DNA from: Candidatus Nomurabacteria bacterium
GTDB lineage: Bacteria; Patescibacteriota; Minisyncoccia; Phycocordibacterales; UBA918
DNA length: 64,000 bases
Direction of reading: 5' to 3'
Assembly (NCBI GenBank): GCA_023898585.1
Contig: CP060229.1
Span: forward strand, 75,388 to 139,387
A model generated the notes under the pieces. It was given only the letters and a program-made list of their open reading frames with translations, was not told the origin of the DNA and did not search any database. The position numbers and the translations under genes were made by a program. Numbering within the stretch: the stretch's first letter is position 1; each line of letters opens with the position of its first letter. Below, piece after piece: positions 613 to 58,890 of the stretch.

Positions 613-1794
613 ATGTACATATTGTCGATAGAAACCTCTTGTGACGAAACTGCTCTCAGCCTGGTGAAAACCGAAGGGAGCTTTCCACATGCCTCTTACG
701 ATATACTAGGAAACGAGCTCTGGTCACAAATTGACATTCATAAAGAATACGGTGGCGTTTTCCCTGCTCTAGCCAAAAGAGAACACGCTACCACAATTGT
801 CCCGTTGCTAAAAAAAATAATAAAGGAATCAGAAGATTTTGGCCCTGCTGTTATTTCAGAAATATCACCCCAAACCAAACAGGCAGTTGAAAAAATCCTT
901 GAACGGGAACCCAGTTTGGCTGAACAACTGTTTGCCTTTCACGATGAATATGGGGCTCAAACGATTGATTTAATAACGGTAACAAACGGACCCGGGTTAG
1001 AGCCGGCACTTTGGGTCGGTGTAAATTTCGCCAAAGCTCTGAGCTTACTCTGGGATGTGCCAGTCGTTCCTGTCAATCATATGGAAGGTCACATATTGGC
1101 AAGTATTTTTGATGCTGAGCGCGACAATCAACTTTCAGATATATCTTTTCCGGCGATATCCCTTCTTATTTCCGGCGGTCATACAGAACTCATTCTCATG
1201 AATAATTGGGGTAACTATGAAAAGATAGGACAGACACGAGACGACGCGGTGGGTGAAGCTTTCGACAAAGTTGCCAGAATGATTGGTCTACCTTATCCCG
1301 GCGGTCCGGAAATTTCTCGACTGGCAAGTGAAGCAAGAAAGAGAAATCTGCCAGAATATGTAAAACTTCCGATTCCTATGCTTCACTCCGGTGATCTTGA
1401 TTTCTCATTTTCAGGACTTAAGACCGCAGTTCGCTATGCAATCCAGGAAAAGTCCCTTACGGACGATGAGAAGGCTTCCTTAGCCAGAGATTTTGAGGAC
1501 GCAGTGACTACTGTCTTACTTAAAAAAACCTCGGACGCTGTTGAAGCGCATGGTGCCAAGACATTGATTGTAGGTGGCGGTGTTAGCAACAGCAAATACA
1601 TCAAGACCACATTTGACTCCAACTTTTTGACAAAACACCCGGACGTGACAGTCTACTTCCCCAAACCAGGCCTTTCAACCGACAACAGCATAATGATAGC
1701 TCTCGCCGGACACGCTCACGCGAGTAGCGCTTTGTTGCCAACCGGGACCGATGTTATACGCGCTGAAGGTAATAAATCCTTAACAGAACGATAG
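613..1794 (+). CDS. tsaD: tRNA N6-adenosine threonylcarbamoyltransferase TsaD (Kae1/YgjD family)
   Basis: ORF 577..1794; SIETSCDETALSLV N-terminal signature and HMEGH metal site; start placed at MYILSIETS (613). Confidence 0.85.
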   Translation: MYILSIETSCDETALSLVKTEGSFPHASYDILGNELWSQIDIHKEYGGVFPALAKREHATTIVPLLKKIIKESEDFGPAVISEISPQTKQAVEKILEREPSLAEQLFAFHDEYGAQTIDLITVTNGPGLEPALWVGVNFAKALSLLWDVPVVPVNHMEGHILASIFDAERDNQLSDISFPAISLLISGGHTELILMNNWGNYEKIGQTRDDAVGEAFDKVARMIGLPYPGGPEISRLASEARKRNLPEYVKLPIPMLHSGDLDFSFSGLKTAVRYAIQEKSLTDDEKASLARDFEDAVTTVLLKKTSDAVEAHGAKTLIVGGGVSNSKYIKTTFDSNFLTKHPDVTVYFPKPGLSTDNSIMIALAGHAHASSALLPTGTDVIRAEGNKSLTER

Positions 1795-6199: not shown

Positions 6200-6385
6200 T
6201 TACTCTTCGAGTCCTACTTCAATGTATGTTGATACCACCTGACCCGAAGCTTGTCGGATGTCTACCAATTGAATAGCGGTATGATCTTCAAGCTGAACAG
6301 GTTCATCTCTAAACCCCAAAACTGTCCCGACAACTTCAGGAGTTGGTAAGCCATTCTTATTGTATGTCTTGTGAATTTTCTCCAT
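6200..6385 (-). CDS. hypothetical protein
   Basis: 61-aa ORF, no recognisable motif. Confidence 0.3.
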   Translation of the reverse strand: MEKIHKTYNKNGLPTPEVVGTVLGFRDEPVQLEDHTAIQLVDIRQASGQVVSTYIEVGLEE

Positions 6386-6804
6386 TTTATTATCCTCTAT
6401 TTATCACAGTCAAAAAGAACACCGAGGAAATCAGAAATGATCCCGCCCACTATAATTTAAACATTTTATGAACAGGAAAGAAAACAGATTTAGACAATTG
6501 AATTAGGTACCGACAAGCAGTGAGTTCAGTTACTCTTTCCTTCCCACATCAAAATTCAGGGAAATTAGAAGTTTTTCATTGTAAAGTAGAAGTCCTTGAG
6601 GTGTGCTTGGGAGCAGTTCGGTCAATCTTGGTTATGGTTTACAGGCATATTGGCGCAGGTTACTAAGTGTTTTCTCTAGCTTCGCTAGTTGCGAGCACTA
6701 AGTACCTACTGCCCCAGCTCGCCTATTTTTGTGCTAGGAGAGGCACAAAAATTATGGCTCCGCTTCACAAAGACGTACGCAAGCAAAGCAGTTTGCCTGC
6801 TAAC

Positions 6805-17882: not shown

Positions 17883-19547
17883 TTATTGCGGAGCGATCAC
17901 ATCTGTTTTTAAGATTCGTGATTGAAAAGAACGGTATATTTCTTTCAGTTCCGGGGAGTTACCGACGGCATATGTCAAAACAATAGCAACTATACCCATG
18001 ACACCGGCCGTTATCCCCTGGATCATTATTCCAACAAAAGTTTCTTGGTTTATTCCCCCCACCACAAAAACCAAAGTCACGTAGGCAGTGACCGCCCCAG
18101 CAATGGTCGCCACACCGGAATGTACAAAAAGTCTCGCCAGTGGACGAAGGTTTATGTTAAAGATTCTTTTTGATAAGACTATAAGTGCAATGAGTTGGAT
18201 ATATTGACCAAGCACAAAAGCTAAGGCCAGGACCAAGACTTCAGAACCCGCAACCCCAGTCAAGCGAAAAGTTTCATTCAAGAATGATTGTAGAGCGGTG
18301 TATTCCGTGTATAAAAACATAAAGCCCGTGGCTAGCGCGACGGAAATTACACCTCCGGCGAGAGCAACAAAAAAAGGAAGGACTGTGCGACCGCCAGCAT
18401 AAAAAGCTCTTATCAACAAAAGCAAAACGGCTTGCGCCAAAAGCGAAATAACAAAAATCGCCAACATAGCGGCCGTCAACCTGGTATCGCTCCAGTTAAA
18501 CTCCCCACTTCCAAGAAGCACGCGCACAATCTGAGCACGCAGAACAATAACCAAACCAATGATAGGAATTGACCAGAAAAATATGTGTCTCAAAGCGGTT
18601 AAGAGTTGTTTGTTGAAGCCCTGTAGGTCACTTTTAGCGTGTAAATAAGAAAGAGTCGGAAAAGCGGCAACAGAGTAACTCATGCCTATAATTACCAAAG
18701 GGACGGATTGCAAATTGAAAGCAAACTGAAAAACCGATACCGACCCAACCGACATCACGGAAGCCATGCCGATTAAAATAAGTAGCACAATTTGATTGAT
18801 TGATAATGTTAGCGCTCTTGGTACGGAGACCAGAAGAATGTTCTTTATTAATCCCCAATCAATTTTGGACGTCGTAAAGAAAGAATATTCGCTCTTTAGC
18901 ACAAACGGTAACTGAATTGCCAGATGTCCCACAGCTCCCAAAACCACCCCGACGACGAGACCGACGAGACCGACTGCAGGATAAAAGAAAGTAATCCCTA
19001 AAATGATTCCAACATTGTACAAAAGTGGGCTGAGGGCATACAGGATAAAACGATGGTTCATCTGTGTTACAACCCCGCACAAACTGGATAAACCCAGCAA
19101 AAACGGTTGGATAAGCAAGATACGCAACAACAGAATCAGACTCTCATACTCTTCCCCAAAACCGGGAAATATATGCAGAACATACCAAGGCGCTAAAAGC
19201 GCCAACAATCCGGCTACCAGCGTATACACCAACAAGAATAGCGAGAACATTTGCGACAAAACTTTCGCGCCACCGGCTGGGTTATTATCCTCAGCGTATC
19301 TGTTCACGAAAGGCAACAGCACATATATCGAAAGAACAGAAGCAAAAAGCACAAATAACAAATCTGGGATGCGAAAAGCGGCATAGTAAAGATCAAGTTC
19401 AATCCCCGCGCCAAAAGTGTGAGCGAGAAGCCTGTCTCTAACAATCGCTAAAATTTGTGATCCAAAAGCAAATAATGCGAGTATGTAAGCAGCCTGATGT
19501 AAACCACGCACCTCACGGTACACAAAGTTGAAAACTCGCTTAACCAT
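17883..19547 (-). CDS. murJ: lipid II flippase MurJ (MviN)
   Basis: 554-aa polytopic protein, N-terminal MurJ pattern (ILAIVRDRLLAHTFGAGIELDLYYAAFRIPDLLF). Confidence 0.8.
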   Translation of the reverse strand: MVKRVFNFVYREVRGLHQAAYILALFAFGSQILAIVRDRLLAHTFGAGIELDLYYAAFRIPDLLFVLFASVLSIYVLLPFVNRYAEDNNPAGGAKVLSQMFSLFLLVYTLVAGLLALLAPWYVLHIFPGFGEEYESLILLLRILLIQPFLLGLSSLCGVVTQMNHRFILYALSPLLYNVGIILGITFFYPAVGLVGLVVGVVLGAVGHLAIQLPFVLKSEYSFFTTSKIDWGLIKNILLVSVPRALTLSINQIVLLILIGMASVMSVGSVSVFQFAFNLQSVPLVIIGMSYSVAAFPTLSYLHAKSDLQGFNKQLLTALRHIFFWSIPIIGLVIVLRAQIVRVLLGSGEFNWSDTRLTAAMLAIFVISLLAQAVLLLLIRAFYAGGRTVLPFFVALAGGVISVALATGFMFLYTEYTALQSFLNETFRLTGVAGSEVLVLALAFVLGQYIQLIALIVLSKRIFNINLRPLARLFVHSGVATIAGAVTAYVTLVFVVGGINQETFVGIMIQGITAGVMGIVAIVLTYAVGNSPELKEIYRSFQSRILKTDVIAPQ

Positions 19548-42018: not shown

Positions 42019-42085
42019 TCACGGGCCAGAAAATATTTAGCCCGATTTTTATGTTTGAGCGAATGAAAATTGTATGATAACTCAT

Positions 42086-42122
42086 ACGATACCGCCACTC
42101 TACCAACTGAGCTAAAGTGGCT
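42086..42122 (-). pseudogene. tRNA-Thr-like 5'-half fragment (acceptor to anticodon CGT)
   Basis: reverse complement GCCACTTTAGCTCAGTTGGTAGAGTGGCGGTATCGTA then unrelated hairpin TGAGTTATCATAC; no 3' half adjacent. Confidence 0.45.
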
Positions 42123-45401: not shown

Positions 45402-46067
45402 TTAACGCTCGCGCGTTTTTATGAAATTGTCGAAACGAACCTTCTTTCTTTTCAGATGAAGCTTCGAGCACCTATTATACATAGTATTCGCCAATTGCAA
45501 AGCTCCGATGGTACTGAACTGCAAACGTGAGAAGTTTCCTTTACCTGAAGTGAACACACACCCACCTCTGACGCCAGCCTCGTTGAGTAACTTTTTCAAG
45601 TCAACTAAGAAAGACTGACACCCACTAGTAAAGGTAACTTGTAACACTGGGGTAGGACAGGGTCGCTTCTTGTTAACGTAACCAATCCACACATTACCAT
45701 CACCATCAAAATATCCTCGAACAAAATCGCCAAGAAATTGTTTAGGAATATCTGGTAAGGATAAACGTTTAGACTTTCCGGGACAAAAACCAAGCTGTAG
45801 CAAATCATAATAAATTTCTTTACTGCCAATTTGTAAACGGTAGACTGAACCTGAATCAGAAACACGCTTAGACACAACATGGTTGGAACACATTATCTTA
45901 CGAATGGATAAAATTATGTCTCTGTCAGCGGAATGAAGAGCCAAAAAATGCGTATTCCGTTTAGTCTGCACCATATTGCCGTCAGCAGCGAAGAAACCTA
46001 GTACATAGGCCATATCCGCAGACCAACGTTTGAAAAAGTCTGTATTTACCATTCGCTGAATTGGCAT
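45402..46067 (-). CDS. LAGLIDADG homing endonuclease (double-motif, free-standing)
   Basis: two LAGLIDADG motifs: YVLGFFAADGNM and FVRGYFDGDGNV; stop codon 1 nt before tRNA-Asp 5' end. Confidence 0.8.
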   Translation of the reverse strand: MPIQRMVNTDFFKRWSADMAYVLGFFAADGNMVQTKRNTHFLALHSADRDIILSIRKIMCSNHVVSKRVSDSGSVYRLQIGSKEIYYDLLQLGFCPGKSKRLSLPDIPKQFLGDFVRGYFDGDGNVWIGYVNKKRPCPTPVLQVTFTSGCQSFLVDLKKLLNEAGVRGGCVFTSGKGNFSRLQFSTIGALQLANTMYNRCSKLHLKRKKVRFDNFIKTRER

Positions 46068-47648: not shown

Positions 47649-48518
47649 CTAGCCTTCTCCTTTTTCATCAGTATCACAACACTCCTTTATCACAGCCTTG
47701 AGTTCAGGGCAATCGACAGCGTACGCTAATATTGCTCGCAAATAACTTTCCGGATCACCGGTTGTAATCCACTTTCCACCTTCAACCTCCTTCGCTAAAA
47801 ACCGTCCTCCTTCTTGAATATAGTTTCTGATCGCGTCAGTAATCCATAATTCGTCCCCTTTCCCGCGTGCGGTGCGCGCCAAAATGTCGACAATCTCTCG
47901 ATTGAGAACATATCTCCCGAAAGCGGCGTGCCTCGACGGAGCTTCTTTCTTGTCCGGTTTTTCTATAATGTCTTCAAGTTCATTGCTGTCCGCACGATAT
48001 TTGACGATTCCATATTTTTCCACTTCATCTTCCGAGACTTCTTGCACGCCCAATATCGGCGCTTGCTCTTTCTTGTGCAGGTCAATTAACTGTTTCGCGA
48101 AAGGCACTTTGCTTTTTACCAAATCGTCACCAAAGGCATAAATGAAAGGATCGTCCCCTATCACACTGGCGGCCGACAAAAGTGGTGTGCCGTTGCCGTA
48201 AGGACCTTTTTGTCGCACGTAGATAAAGTTTGCCATGGTCGATATTTTTCGCACCTGTTCAAGGCGCTTGTTTTTTCCGGTTTTTTCCAAGCTTCGCTCC
48301 AATTCGAAAGACCGATCGAAGTGATCTTCGAGTGGCTTTTTGTCCCACCGTGTTACCATGATGATGTCCTTGATTCCGGCATCAACCAATTCTTCTACTA
48401 AATACTGAATGATCGGCTTATCAATAATCGGCAACATTTCTTTCGGTTGCGATTTGGTGGCCGGCAACAATCTGGTTCCCGAGCCAGCTACCGCAATTAC
48501 CGCTTTTGTTATTTCCAT
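47649..48518 (-). CDS. galU: UTP--glucose-1-phosphate uridylyltransferase
   Basis: AVIAVAGSGTRLLPATKSQPKEMLPIIDKP; start at MEITKAV (48518); the ORF's upstream extension runs through a tRNA and tandem repeats and is not coding. Confidence 0.8.
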   Translation of the reverse strand: MEITKAVIAVAGSGTRLLPATKSQPKEMLPIIDKPIIQYLVEELVDAGIKDIIMVTRWDKKPLEDHFDRSFELERSLEKTGKNKRLEQVRKISTMANFIYVRQKGPYGNGTPLLSAASVIGDDPFIYAFGDDLVKSKVPFAKQLIDLHKKEQAPILGVQEVSEDEVEKYGIVKYRADSNELEDIIEKPDKKEAPSRHAAFGRYVLNREIVDILARTARGKGDELWITDAIRNYIQEGGRFLAKEVEGGKWITTGDPESYLRAILAYAVDCPELKAVIKECCDTDEKGEG

Positions 48519-48597
48519 ATATCGAGAGATTATAACACTATAGCCGGCTTGGGAAAATGAAAAAGGCTGGCAAGGAAGCCAGTCTTTTTCATTCTTG

Positions 48598-48668
48598 TTG
48601 CGGGGCCCGGAATCGAACCGGGGTCTGGAGGTTATGAGCCTCCCGAGGTACCTCTCCTCTACCCCGCT
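48598..48668 (-). tRNA. tRNA-Met(CAT), initiator-like (1:72 mismatch)
   Basis: reverse complement AGCGGGGTAGAGGAGAGGTACCTCGGGAGGCTCATAACCTCCAGACCCCGGTTCGATTCCGGGCCCCGCAA. Confidence 0.65.
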
Positions 48669-49046
48669 GTAATATTCATTCTTTTCTCCTCTCATCTTAA
48701 CGGAATCTCGGGAGGTTATGAGTCTTATGATTTTTCTGCTCGGTACCTCTCCTCTACCCCGCTGTAATATTCATTCTTTTCTCCTCTCATCTTAACGGAA
48801 TCTCGGGAGGTTATGAGTCTTATGATTTTTCTGCTCGGTACCTCTCCTCTACCCCGCTGTAATATTCATTCTTTTCTCCTCTCATCTTAACGGAATCTCG
48901 GGAGGTTATGAGTCTTATGATTTTTCTGCTCGGTACCTCTCCTCTACCCCGCTGTAATATTCATTCTTTTCTCCTCTCATCTTAACGGAATCTCGGGAGG
49001 TTATGAGTCTTATGATTTTTCTGCTCGGTACCTCTCCTCTACCCCG
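48669..49046. repeat. tandem repeat, 95-bp unit, about 4.6 copies, derived from upstream region + 5' half of the adjacent tRNA-Met
   Basis: unit TCTCGGGAGGTTATGAGTCTTATGATTTTTCTGCTCGGTACCTCTCCTCTACCCCGCTGTAATATTCATTCTTTTCTCCTCTCATCTTAACGGAA starting at 48706, 48801, 48896, 48991, with a variant copy spanning the tRNA itself. Confidence 0.9.
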
Positions 49047-49270
49047 CTATGTTATTTAATTCTACTGCTACCACGCGTTTGAATGAGCTCTTCTCATCCT
49101 ACAGGGTCTGTACACCTTGTCACTAAATTATTTCGTTCCTCATAATTTAGCAGGCAAGGTCTTGCGAAGGTCTCCCAGACCTTCTCAACCCGCTTAATAC
49201 CAATTCTATTTCTGTCGATTTAAAAACAAACGACAGTGTTAAATTACACCATTTTCGAAATGTTAGCAAC

Positions 49271-49906
49271 TTAAGTAACCCCAAACTCGGCAAACACTCG
49301 TCGGTATCTGGCGATTGTTTCCTCAGTCATTCTTTTTGTTAGCACATAATCAGCTCCGTCGTGTGCAATACGGTTTCTGACCTTATGCGCTTCCCAAGCA
49401 TCGTTCAATGACCCTAGTTGCGAGGGGGAAATACTTCGCAATCTTTCTCCGAGAGAATCTCCAGCGTAGCCACGATTCTTCAGCACACTATCGAGAATGA
49501 TATCTGCTTCGATGATCGCCAGCTTCCAATCGTTTGGATTATCGGATTCGGAATGGGTAAAGATGTCAGCCAAGCGACTGTTTGTACCGTTCCCCCTTAT
49601 TTGTTCATCATAGAGTTTCTCTTGAGCCCGTAGCCTTTCTGTACGTAAATCATAATAGAGATTTTTTTGCACCGCAGCGTACACATATAAAATCAAAAAT
49701 ATAATACAGACGATGTAAGCCAATACGGTATAAAATGACCAAAAAGAACCGAGAAAACTGACCAGTCCATTAGGCACGCTTCCGCCACTGAAAAGTCCGG
49801 TAAACAAAACTGAAATATCAATCCCAAAGGATGATAATGGGACGCTAGGCACCGCCGTTGTGGCTGAAGTGCTGGTTACGAATGTGATTGGTTCTGTTGG
49901 ATCCAT
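49271..49906 (-). CDS. hypothetical membrane-anchored protein with C-terminal HEPN-like Rx4-6H motif
   Basis: N-terminal TM; C-terminal ...NDAWEAHKVRNRIAHDG. Confidence 0.35.
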   Translation of the reverse strand: MDPTEPITFVTSTSATTAVPSVPLSSFGIDISVLFTGLFSGGSVPNGLVSFLGSFWSFYTVLAYIVCIIFLILYVYAAVQKNLYYDLRTERLRAQEKLYDEQIRGNGTNSRLADIFTHSESDNPNDWKLAIIEADIILDSVLKNRGYAGDSLGERLRSISPSQLGSLNDAWEAHKVRNRIAHDGADYVLTKRMTEETIARYRRVFAEFGVT

Positions 49907-58571: not shown

Positions 58572-58890
58572 GAGCATGTCCAAAAATCCCAATTTCTGCG
58601 TTGTCTGCATCTCGGTATGCTCACCGTATGTCCATATACGTCTCACATACCTCGATTTGACACCGTACCGGTGCTGTACACCTTTTGGATAATTTTATTC
58701 GTAAACTCTAAAATTATCGCAAAAGGTCTTGCAAAAGTCTTCTAGACTTTCTCACCTTGAAATTGTGAGTTTTGAAGACATGCTCTTGCTCTGTTGCAAT
58801 GTCAGACAATCATACCGCTCTGTATTATAAGGTTTTCAGACATTCTCTTGGTGAGGAATGACTCTTCGTATGGGGCTGAAAGTGGAAGAG

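Follow-up and report, generated by a model that had tools for sequence, protein, structure and literature searches.

An array of repeats beside the initiator-type tRNA gene

The stretch of DNA analysed here, called the window below, is a 64,000-nucleotide part of contig CP060229.1 from a Candidatus Nomurabacteria bacterium (GCA_023898585.1). Our subject is an array of 95-bp tandem repeats on its minus strand (-), directly upstream of a tRNA-Met(CAT) gene and downstream of the gene for a 211-aa protein that adjoins the array (p211). Unless a locus in another genome is named, coordinates are those of the window. Tandem Repeats Finder detected the array at 48647-49048 with a period of 95 bp, 4.2 copies, 100% matches, 0 indels and a score of 804, and a repeat search of the window found the copies in register at 95-bp steps. 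A 400-bp perfect tandem repeat cannot be explained by chance. The locus had been picked out by an earlier reading of the sequence alone (the original prediction), whose 95-bp period and identity of the copies were borne out by the Tandem Repeats Finder run, and whose count of four and a half copies has to be read as four full units plus 22 nt, the array itself being as described. Every unit repeats the sequence directly upstream of the tRNA gene, as that prediction had also said.

Read along the minus strand, the order is (X-Y)x4 followed by X-Z, where X (AGCGGGGTAGAGGAGAGGTACC) is a 22-nt segment equal to tRNA positions 1-22, Y comprises 73 nt, and Z is the remainder of the true tRNA. X spans the acceptor 5' strand and the stem and loop of the D arm, together with the first two bases on the 3' strand of the D stem.

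The gene that closes the array, at 48597/8-48668 (-), was recognised by Rfam (RF00005, 57.3 bits against a gathering threshold of 29) and by ARAGORN, which assigned the anticodon CAT. It displays several initiator traits, namely an A1xA72 mismatch, an A11:U24 pair, and G:C pairs at 30:40 and 31:39; position 29:41 is A:U, so that two, not three, consecutive G:C pairs are found in 29-31:39-41. The same tRNA-Met sequence is present in 20 other species-level genomes, and no other such CAT tRNA sequence was seen at the conserved locus in over 100 relatives. As judged from these sequence features, the assignment to the initiator type is supported, in agreement with the 1:72 mismatch from which an initiator-like tRNA had originally been proposed.

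Y starts with GAGCAGAAAAATCATAAGA, which stands in place of TCGGGAGG (the end of the D stem, position 26, and the anticodon-stem 5' strand) and is followed by CTCATAACCTCC, identical to the anticodon loop and the 3' strand of its stem. Later remnants in Y align with the T loop (GATTCCG) and with the tRNA 3' trailer (AAGAATGAA). Aligned with the rest of the tRNA plus trailer, Y scored 33, compared with 6.8 +/- 3.5 for shuffled sequences, none of 2000 reaching 33. The window unit, which belongs to class A of the three classes distinguished below, retains tRNA positions 1-22 and 32-43, and Y lacks the anticodon-stem 5' strand and the T arm. Because Y also matches the T loop and the trailer with this score, the unit is a decayed copy of the whole gene and not just of its 5' half. 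The derivation from an initiator-like tRNA put forward in the original prediction is therefore retained, but its restriction to the 5' half is not. The statement that AGCAGAAAAATCATAAGA replaces the T arm also has to be corrected, since the segment was misplaced: it replaces the last two D-stem nucleotides, position 26, and the anticodon-stem 5' strand (TCGGGAGG), and in the alignment the T arm and acceptor 3' strand are deleted or decayed further downstream than AGCAGAAAAATCATAAGA. No repeat unit was matched as a tRNA by Rfam RF00005 at E values up to 10, and ARAGORN called none; the tRNA was the sole Rfam match for the array and its flanks, both with gathering thresholds and with E values up to 10. 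A coding repeat was discarded because 95 is not divisible by 3 and the short plus-strand open reading frame (ORF) of the unit shifts frame in one relative (L070).

The repeat unit in related genomes and assemblies

An exact scan for X over one genome per species gave at least 120 loci, and the locus counts reported here refer to the 120 that were listed. All of them belong to Paceibacteria, Kaiserbacteria, Nomurabacteria, and related bacteria; most hold a single X, and the gene order gatA, p211, tRNA is conserved in more than 100. Class A was defined as X, GAGC, a linker, and (GA)CTCATAACCTCC upstream of the initiator tRNA, with at least 57 bits in R1, a covariance model built from class A units. 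Twelve other Paceibacteria genomes or contigs have the junction of GGTACC with GAGC...(GA)CTCATAACCTCC upstream of this tRNA, namely the genomes L014 (contig cut), L017, L044, L053, L058, L061, and L070 and the metagenome contigs L144/L174, L145, L153, L156, and L168; their GatA proteins are 62-78% identical to that of the window. A metagenome scan with the 17-nt junction had returned 55 stretches, 7 of them relevant and the rest mostly chance matches in coding DNA. R1 gave 57-92 bits to complete class A units (57-86 for the eleven complete units of other species), 15-33 to complete pseudo-units of the other classes, and at most 42 to true tRNAs, the exceptions being the 5'-degenerate first copy in L070 (42.3 bits) and the cut-short L014 (37.9 bits). 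X and the core of Y are 85-100% conserved, and the 3' spacer of the unit is unalignable between species.

A comparison of copy number among relatives, which the original prediction had proposed as a check, revealed a single class A copy in most carriers and arrays in two. L156 has an 88-nt period with at least 2 copies, and L070 a 76-nt period with at least 2.6 copies that differ by 1 nt; both contigs end inside the array. L156 is the same composite as the window, a class C element (see below) followed by the class A array. In L058 the pseudo-anticodon stem is complete and has an enlarged loop, a form that looks like an intermediate stage. Because the unit is present in carriers whose GatA identity is 62-78%, only the amplification is recent; the array had been called recent as a whole, which holds for amplification or homogenisation but not for the unit, common to these species.

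The identical p211 sequence was used to find other assemblies of the locus, and it is encoded on six other public contigs. L002 (a MEGAHIT k141 contig) contains one unit and the tRNA, L001 (a scaffold) has a run of N within the array, L003 (an NCBI metagenome-assembled genome (MAG) contig, GCA_020428745.1) ends exactly at the end of the second X, and L004 (a Logan unitig of the same strain) ends 7 nt past the first X, in Y of the first unit. Five further runs contain this locus from a sister strain whose p211 falls in the same 90% cluster: the unitigs L182, L183, L185, and L186 end in Y of the first unit and L184 ends 8 nt into the first X. The first unit of this strain has a variant linker (GAGCGGAAGAATCATAAG), and L182 and L183 end 30 nt past the last variant base, as would fit a k=31 graph if another, different unit comes next. 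These break points are the branch sites of a de Bruijn graph if at least two units are present; therefore, at least two units are real, and they exist in several samples. Only the present assembly supports a count of four, and looking up the downstream ORF as well turned up no additional ones.

It could be argued that one or two units are real and that the four perfect copies came from a mis-resolved repeat. Among the short-read assemblies, L002 has one unit, L001 has an N gap, and L003 and L004 end within the array, and four perfectly identical units are what an over-expanded repeat is expected to look like. However, tandem repeats are usually collapsed and not expanded during assembly, the break points in L003, L004, L182, L183, L185, and L186 are those expected with at least two units, and the different linker in the first unit of the sister strain implies at least two distinct units there. 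Moreover, the contig behind the window measures at least 64 kb, and the identical p211 is listed on a contig of 994,774 bp ('Candidatus Kaiserbacteria bacterium', USN92325.1). We regard such an artefact as very unlikely, and it could touch only the number of copies, not the existence of the array.

The predicted leader and its elements

A putative primary promoter (Table 1) is placed directly 3' of the p211 stop codon. A strict version of the motif that includes an extended -10 (TTGNNN, spacer, TG, TANNNT) occurs within ~110 nt of the p211 stop in 24 of 108 loci, including most of the closest relatives (L026, L028, L030, L047, L053, L054, L061, L114-L116, and L153). As this conserved promoter lies upstream of the whole array, the array is most likely part of a ~570-nt 5' leader that would be removed by RNase P. 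The order along the leader is promoter, small hairpin, class C, GTAGAAT...CAT box, four class A units, and tRNA. The box, GTAGAATTAAATAACAT, is of a type (GTAGAAT...CAT) that directly precedes the true tRNA in close relatives and is identical in L114. Weak boxes can be read in each unit (TTCCGT, 16 nt, AAGAAT, and 9 nt to the next X); in unit 4, TTCCGT occupies 48700-48705 and AAGAAT makes up the opening six bases of the AAGAATGAATATTAC match at 48669-48683. A promoter scan found no promoter-like site within the units. The tRNAs Phe and Gln of the window, for which a promoter-like site is readable, have leaders of 35-45 nt, and the tRNA-Phe leader ends in ...ACAT, as does the sequence before the first array unit.

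Table 1. Elements of the array locus and the second class C copy, with window coordinates.
Feature	Position	Strand	Basis
Putative primary promoter (-35 TTGCTA 49264-49269, 17-nt spacer, -10 TAATTT 49241-49246)	49241..49269	-	consensus match
Small hairpin CTGTCG...CGACAG at the start of the predicted leader	49212..49236	-	read from the sequence; forms in the full-leader fold
Class C RNA, copy 1, in the initiator-tRNA leader	49088..49194	-	R2 112.4 bits, E 4e-28
GTAGAATTAAATAACAT, -10-like box with ...CAT context, precedes unit 1	49049..49065	-	sequence comparison
Array unit 1 (X-Y)	48954..49048	-	Tandem Repeats Finder; R1 91.5 bits
Array unit 2, identical to unit 1	48859..48953	-	R1 91.5 bits
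Array unit 3, identical to unit 1	48764..48858	-	R1 91.5 bits
Array unit 4, identical to unit 1; 3' end adjoins the functional tRNA	48669..48763	-	R1 91.5 bits
Functional tRNA-Met(CAT), initiator type; first 22 nt = fifth X	48598..48668	-	ARAGORN, Rfam RF00005
Terminator-like hairpin and T run, 3' of the tRNA	48554..48589	-	inverted repeat I1
Class C RNA, copy 2, between pilC and a pilin gene, without tRNA-like 5' end	58653-58761	-	R2 74 bits

A single unit is predicted to form one long hairpin (-20.4 kcal/mol, z = -2.16) in which helix P1 pairs AGCGGGGT with ATTCCGTT, P2 pairs GG-A-GAGGT with ACCTC-CC, and P3 pairs GAGC with G-A-CTC. The same three helices are predicted in the window, L070, L156, L153, and L144, and partly in others. 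In the minimum-energy fold of the full leader, the first pseudo-X pairs with the 3' acceptor strand of the true tRNA, and identical X copies can therefore compete for it. A local hairpin on each pseudo-X would neutralise this competition, which may be why these units, and a tRNA-Thr pseudo-unit described below, close on themselves.

Upstream of the array, class C is a well-supported structured RNA without a family assignment. Copy 1 begins with a tRNA-like 5' end (AGCGGGTTGAGA) and continues with hairpin 1 (GGGA loop), CGCAAGA, the long hairpin 2, GGTGTACAGA, hairpin 3 (GTA loop), and GAGAAGAG; it departs from the consensus by G7T, a 1-nt deletion in hairpin 3, and GAGAAGAG instead of GAGGAGAG. 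The family has three hairpins, conserved joining segments GGTGAGA, T(C/T)GCAAGA, and GGTGTACAG, and a GTA triloop. Compensatory changes were found in 23 of 32 pairs of a nine-sequence alignment, and pairs are formed in 92.3% of cells compared with 75.5% in shuffles, 0 of 500 of which matched the real alignment on any measure. Rfam gave no match to class C. With R2, the class C covariance model, more copies were found in relatives, often 40-60 nt 3' of another tRNA (e.g., L052, L153, and L030); sites in these genomes include L064 ~905-1040 (-), L153 8561-8664 (+), L052 2745-2801 (-), and L030 ~6200-6410 (+). The outer ends of some copies pair like an acceptor stem, and those of L064 copy the elongator tRNA-Met (GTCGACGG...CCGTCGACAC), which suggests tRNA-framed RNAs that came from tRNA gene duplicates.

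An initial fuzzy scan detected, in 23 of the 120 loci, an incomplete copy of the tRNA 5' end that lies 72-166 nt upstream of the gene; it overlooked others, e.g., L007 and L114, and with the class C carriers the share is ~20-30%. These pseudo-5' copies fall into three classes, A, B, and C. In class B, AGCGGGGTAGAGGAGAG is followed by a short hairpin, CGGGAGG, and GCAnnTGCGAAGC. A class B unit comprises tRNA positions 1-17, the hairpin, and CGGGAGG, followed by a complete -35/-10 promoter; we observed it upstream of the tRNA in L023, L032, L035, L040, L051, L082, L083, L087, and L110. Compared by eye, its stems vary between species and stay complementary (TCGCG/CGCGA, TTGG/CCAA, CCGTG/TACGG, CTGT/ACAG, GTCAT/ATGAC, and GCCAT/ATGGC). 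The promoter, (T/A/G)TGCGA, 16-18 nt, TANNNT, and 5-8 nt to the tRNA, comes right after pseudo-positions 1-31, and class B is, on this layout, clearly a tandem duplication of the segment from the promoter through tRNA +31. In 54 of the 120 loci, TTGCNN, 16-18 nt, and TANNNT end 5-9 nt (mode 7) before tRNA +1, and because of this position of TANNNT, the initiator tRNA of many Paceibacteria is probably transcribed nearly leaderless.

Tandem copies recur in L156, L070, L082, L040, L026, and L025, with diverged double copies in L082 and L040, 1.6 class C copies in L026, and an N gap in the array of L025. A pseudo 5' half of tRNA-Thr(CGT) is located at 42085-42121 (-), 103 nt upstream of the real gene; it is identical to positions 7-37 at 29 of 31 nucleotides, and its mutated acceptor strand closes a 9-bp hairpin. 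A hairpin with a T run is found at 42065-42087 with this pseudo tRNA-Thr. There thus seems to be a general tendency in these genomes to duplicate the promoter-proximal 5' block of tRNA genes.

The flanking genes are gatC and gatA, for amidotransferase subunits, and a downstream GalU-like NTP_transferase gene (PF00483, E 3e-34). The 348-aa ORF at 47649-48695 (-) was rejected as over-extended, as it spans the terminator and the tRNA and takes in 27 nt of the last unit; the NTP_transferase domain of the real GalU-like gene begins with the ATG at 48527, and public gene calls overextend it. The p211 gene, at 49271-49906 (-), is flanked by gatA and the initiator tRNA in this same way in over 100 of the listed loci. 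No Pfam or NCBIfam family matched p211; its structural model (predicted local distance difference test, pLDDT, 81) shows a long helix at the N terminus and a helical domain at the C terminus in which the motif R177-N-x3-H182 is invariant, and the best fold matches in the PDB were HEPN-domain proteins (1wwp, 1wty, 2q00, 2hsb, and Csm6), weak at E >=0.15.

Other features of the initiator tRNA genes and of the window were also observed. Group I introns (RF00028) occur at L007 2158-2422, L047 6001-6203, L064 3472-3697, and L071 3065-3334, directly after the 5' exon of the initiator tRNA in L007, L047, and L071, the L064 match being unplaced with respect to the tRNA; insertions into the anticodon loop occur at two or more sites, following CTCAT(A) and following GGCT. 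A LAGLIDADG homing endonuclease ORF, apparently free-standing, is located at 45402-46067 (-) (PF14528, E 4.5e-11), 600 bp from the second tRNA-Met(CAT) of the window. The 95-nt tRNA-Leu(CAG) that ARAGORN reports at 18471-18565 (-) is below the Rfam gathering threshold and probably a false positive.

Origin of the array and comparison with known systems

With moderate confidence, we read the array as a recent tandem amplification of an old pseudo-tRNA leader module. The initiator gene often starts 5-9 nt after the -10 box, and its 5' end and promoter would thus form one tight block. The promoter together with part or all of the gene would have been duplicated in tandem repeatedly, and the upstream copies would have decayed into the three classes. 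The retained pieces of a unit are complementary and may form a three-helix hairpin of ~65 nt that hides the duplicated acceptor 5' strand. The array would be transcribed as leader, and RNase P would remove it by cleavage at the true tRNA. Copy number would shift by unequal recombination or replication slippage between units. The arrangement X-Y-X-Z amounts to a 22-bp direct repeat, such that an exchange between a pseudo-X and the true X would produce a precise deletion and leave an intact gene; unequal exchange between X copies would explain the arrays, their differing copy numbers, and the patchy distribution. On this view, the units are passengers that the cell tolerates, or weak additional promoters at most, and not a trans-acting RNA.

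The sequences display directly the anatomy of the array, its homology to the tRNA, its conservation in other species, and the variation in copy number. Several points speak against the amplification account. Transcription from the upstream promoter, its start, and the removal by RNase P rest on consensus matches. The class A hairpin gave no covariation signal in a model-guided alignment (78.1% of cells paired, 77.6% in shuffles), because the columns are nearly invariant; P1 is formed in just 63% of cells, and RNAalifold favours a different, small local hairpin. The tRNA-identical parts of Y could be kept by gene conversion instead of selection. As to the distribution, the nearest relatives by GatA, L047 (85%), L026 and L114 (81%), and L116 and L007 (78%), all lack class A; the last four carry class C and L047 neither class, and L053, L153, and L061 (75-78%) carry class A; such a patchy history needs several losses or transfer between lineages. 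Finally, the conserved non-tRNA GAGC and the persistence of the module despite easy deletion hint at a function that the account does not name.

A rival explanation is a promoter array, in which each unit would be a working tRNA promoter and multiple starts would raise or tune the supply of initiator tRNA, upstream starts reading through. The usual -10 of the clade sits 5-9 nt before tRNA +1, class B units of relatives hold a full -35/-10 at 16-18 nt, L144 has TGtTACAAT 10 nt before the tRNA, and the boxes of the window units (TTCCGT, 16 nt, AAGAAT, 9 nt, next X) have the right geometry. However, these boxes are poor, with 2/6 matches to TTGACA, 3/6 to the TTGCCA of the clade, and 4/6 to TATAAT, and the consensus scan placed no site inside the units; other class A members lack a workable spacing, the candidate boxes of L070 being just 10 nt apart, and the Phe and Gln leaders of 35-45 nt indicate that an A/T-rich ...CAT before a tRNA need not be a -10. 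We consider this explanation rather unlikely for the window; the original suggestion that each copy may carry a promoter is weak there, given the poor boxes and the empty scan, but it is right for class B of the relatives. A small RNA has a slim chance in our view: a ~95-nt hairpin unit would be released, e.g., by RNase P at the pseudo-acceptor stem, and act as a decoy or regulator, possibly by pairing of CCTCCCGAG with positions 22-30 (CTCGGGAGG) of the initiator tRNA precursor or by titration of an initiator-tRNA-binding protein. Each unit has 9 contiguous base pairs within a 12/14 match to GGTACCTCGGGAGG of the tRNA (inverted repeats I2-I5), L070 and L156 have a match of 11 nt, GAGC and CGAG are conserved although they do not come from the tRNA, and U/C at -1 with a ...(C/T)AT context precedes X in pseudo and true copies alike. 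Nevertheless, the class A hairpin is without covariation, the predicted fold does not present the anticodon loop as a loop, a single copy is the rule among carriers, and the complementarity comes partly from the palindromic anticodon stem.

A guide-RNA array (of the clustered regularly interspaced short palindromic repeats, CRISPR, or TIGR kind), a type III antitoxin array, iterons, or leftover attachment sites deserve hardly any credence. A tandem array in a bacterium of the candidate phyla radiation (CPR), where TIGR arrays occur (PMC12045711), and the vicinity of a tRNA, a common integration target, would suit readings of this kind, but the tests that we ran on the units, the neighbours, the duplicated part, and the skew contradict them. 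Identity between the units is 100% across the 95 nt, which leaves no variable spacers, and there is no cas gene among the neighbours, so a CRISPR array was rejected, as the original prediction had done together with a coding repeat. TIGR-Tas was rejected since the 95-nt unit has no variable part and no Nop domain was found among the Pfam-matched neighbours (gatA, two NTP_transferases, and LAGLIDADG), p211 being without a family match. The gene downstream is a PF00483 nucleotidyltransferase and not ToxN, as a type III toxin-antitoxin system would have it, although no padloc search was made. Duplication of an attachment site would involve the 3' part of the tRNA, but here the 5' part is the one duplicated, and the 73 nt between copies are non-coding, with no integrase nearby. 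With regard to an origin, the GC skew is negative in all 4-kb bins from 16 to 64 kb, without a sign change near the array, and no DnaA-box-like sites were found in 48500-49300.

If the array is an amplified leader module, it bears on translation-initiation capacity, because the initiator tRNA is a single-copy, essential gene in these reduced genomes and the units would lie in its precursor. At this locus, the promoter and 5' block are duplicated repeatedly, and the pseudo-copies last across deep divergence; they can expand to arrays that break short-read assemblies, which explains the recurrent contig ends of CPR MAGs at this point. The tRNA-framed architecture suggests a possible route by which new RNAs processed by RNase P could come from tRNA gene duplicates. 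A bolder proposal, which we think unlikely, is that the Paceibacteria initiator-tRNA leader hosts an undescribed family of tRNA-framed structured RNAs in three classes, the array being an expandable bank that acts on the maturation or availability of the initiator tRNA. The ends that copy the neighbouring tRNA could make these RNAs substrates of RNase P, and the strongly covarying, multi-copy core of class C also occurs away from the tRNA, as in the pilC-pilin interval of the window; if the proposal were true, the array might act with p211, the conserved protein encoded immediately upstream and predicted to be HEPN-like and membrane-bound.

Tandem duplication of a promoter-proximal block or of whole initiator genes is familiar from Escherichia coli, with the tandem promoters P1-P2 of the rrn operons and the tandem initiator-tRNA genes metZ-metW-metV. 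Class B of the relatives, a promoter plus the first 31 nt of the tRNA, resembles these, and the copies in the window are pseudogenes with degenerate boxes. The repeat of the E. coli tyrT operon is a 178-bp unit that carries a tRNA 3' segment. As in the window, tandem repeats thus flank a bacterial tRNA gene and carry a piece of it, and co-transcription followed by release through tRNA processing would be a further likeness, probable for the window array. However, the tyrT repeats are downstream and hold the 3' end of the tRNA, whereas our units are upstream and hold a 5' part, and the window array has no known stable product or peptide, unlike the tyrT operon repeats, which are described as encoding the rttR (RtT) RNA (PMC3318445, citing Bosl and Kersten 1991). 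RF00391 was among the Rfam families scanned and had no match at the array, although the family was not tested directly.

TIGR arrays are tandem RNA-encoding arrays from the same organism group, but their units measure 36 nt and combine two alternating repeats of 8-12 nt with dual variable spacers; they also have box C/D motifs and a gene with a Nop domain beside them (PMC12045711). The window array has none of these features. Closest to it, along with the tyrT repeats, are the tandem pseudogene arrays of plastid trnF(GAA) in Solanaceae, reported for Brassicaceae too (PMC3786074). Like them, the window array has head-to-tail units of partial domains plus spacer beside a functional tRNA gene, with a copy number that varies between lineages. 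The plastid case concerns an elongator tRNA-Phe, whereas here it is the initiator tRNA of a free-living or episymbiotic CPR bacterium, and the unit of the window consists of exactly positions 1-22 and 32-43, lies in what is probably a transcribed leader, and is conserved at GatA identities of 62-78%. The literature on CPR initiator-tRNA leaders, tRNA introns, and RNA motifs offered nothing direct. What sets this array apart from the known ones is that it is upstream of the gene, derived from its 5' part, attached to a CPR initiator tRNA, and a member of a conserved family of leader modules.

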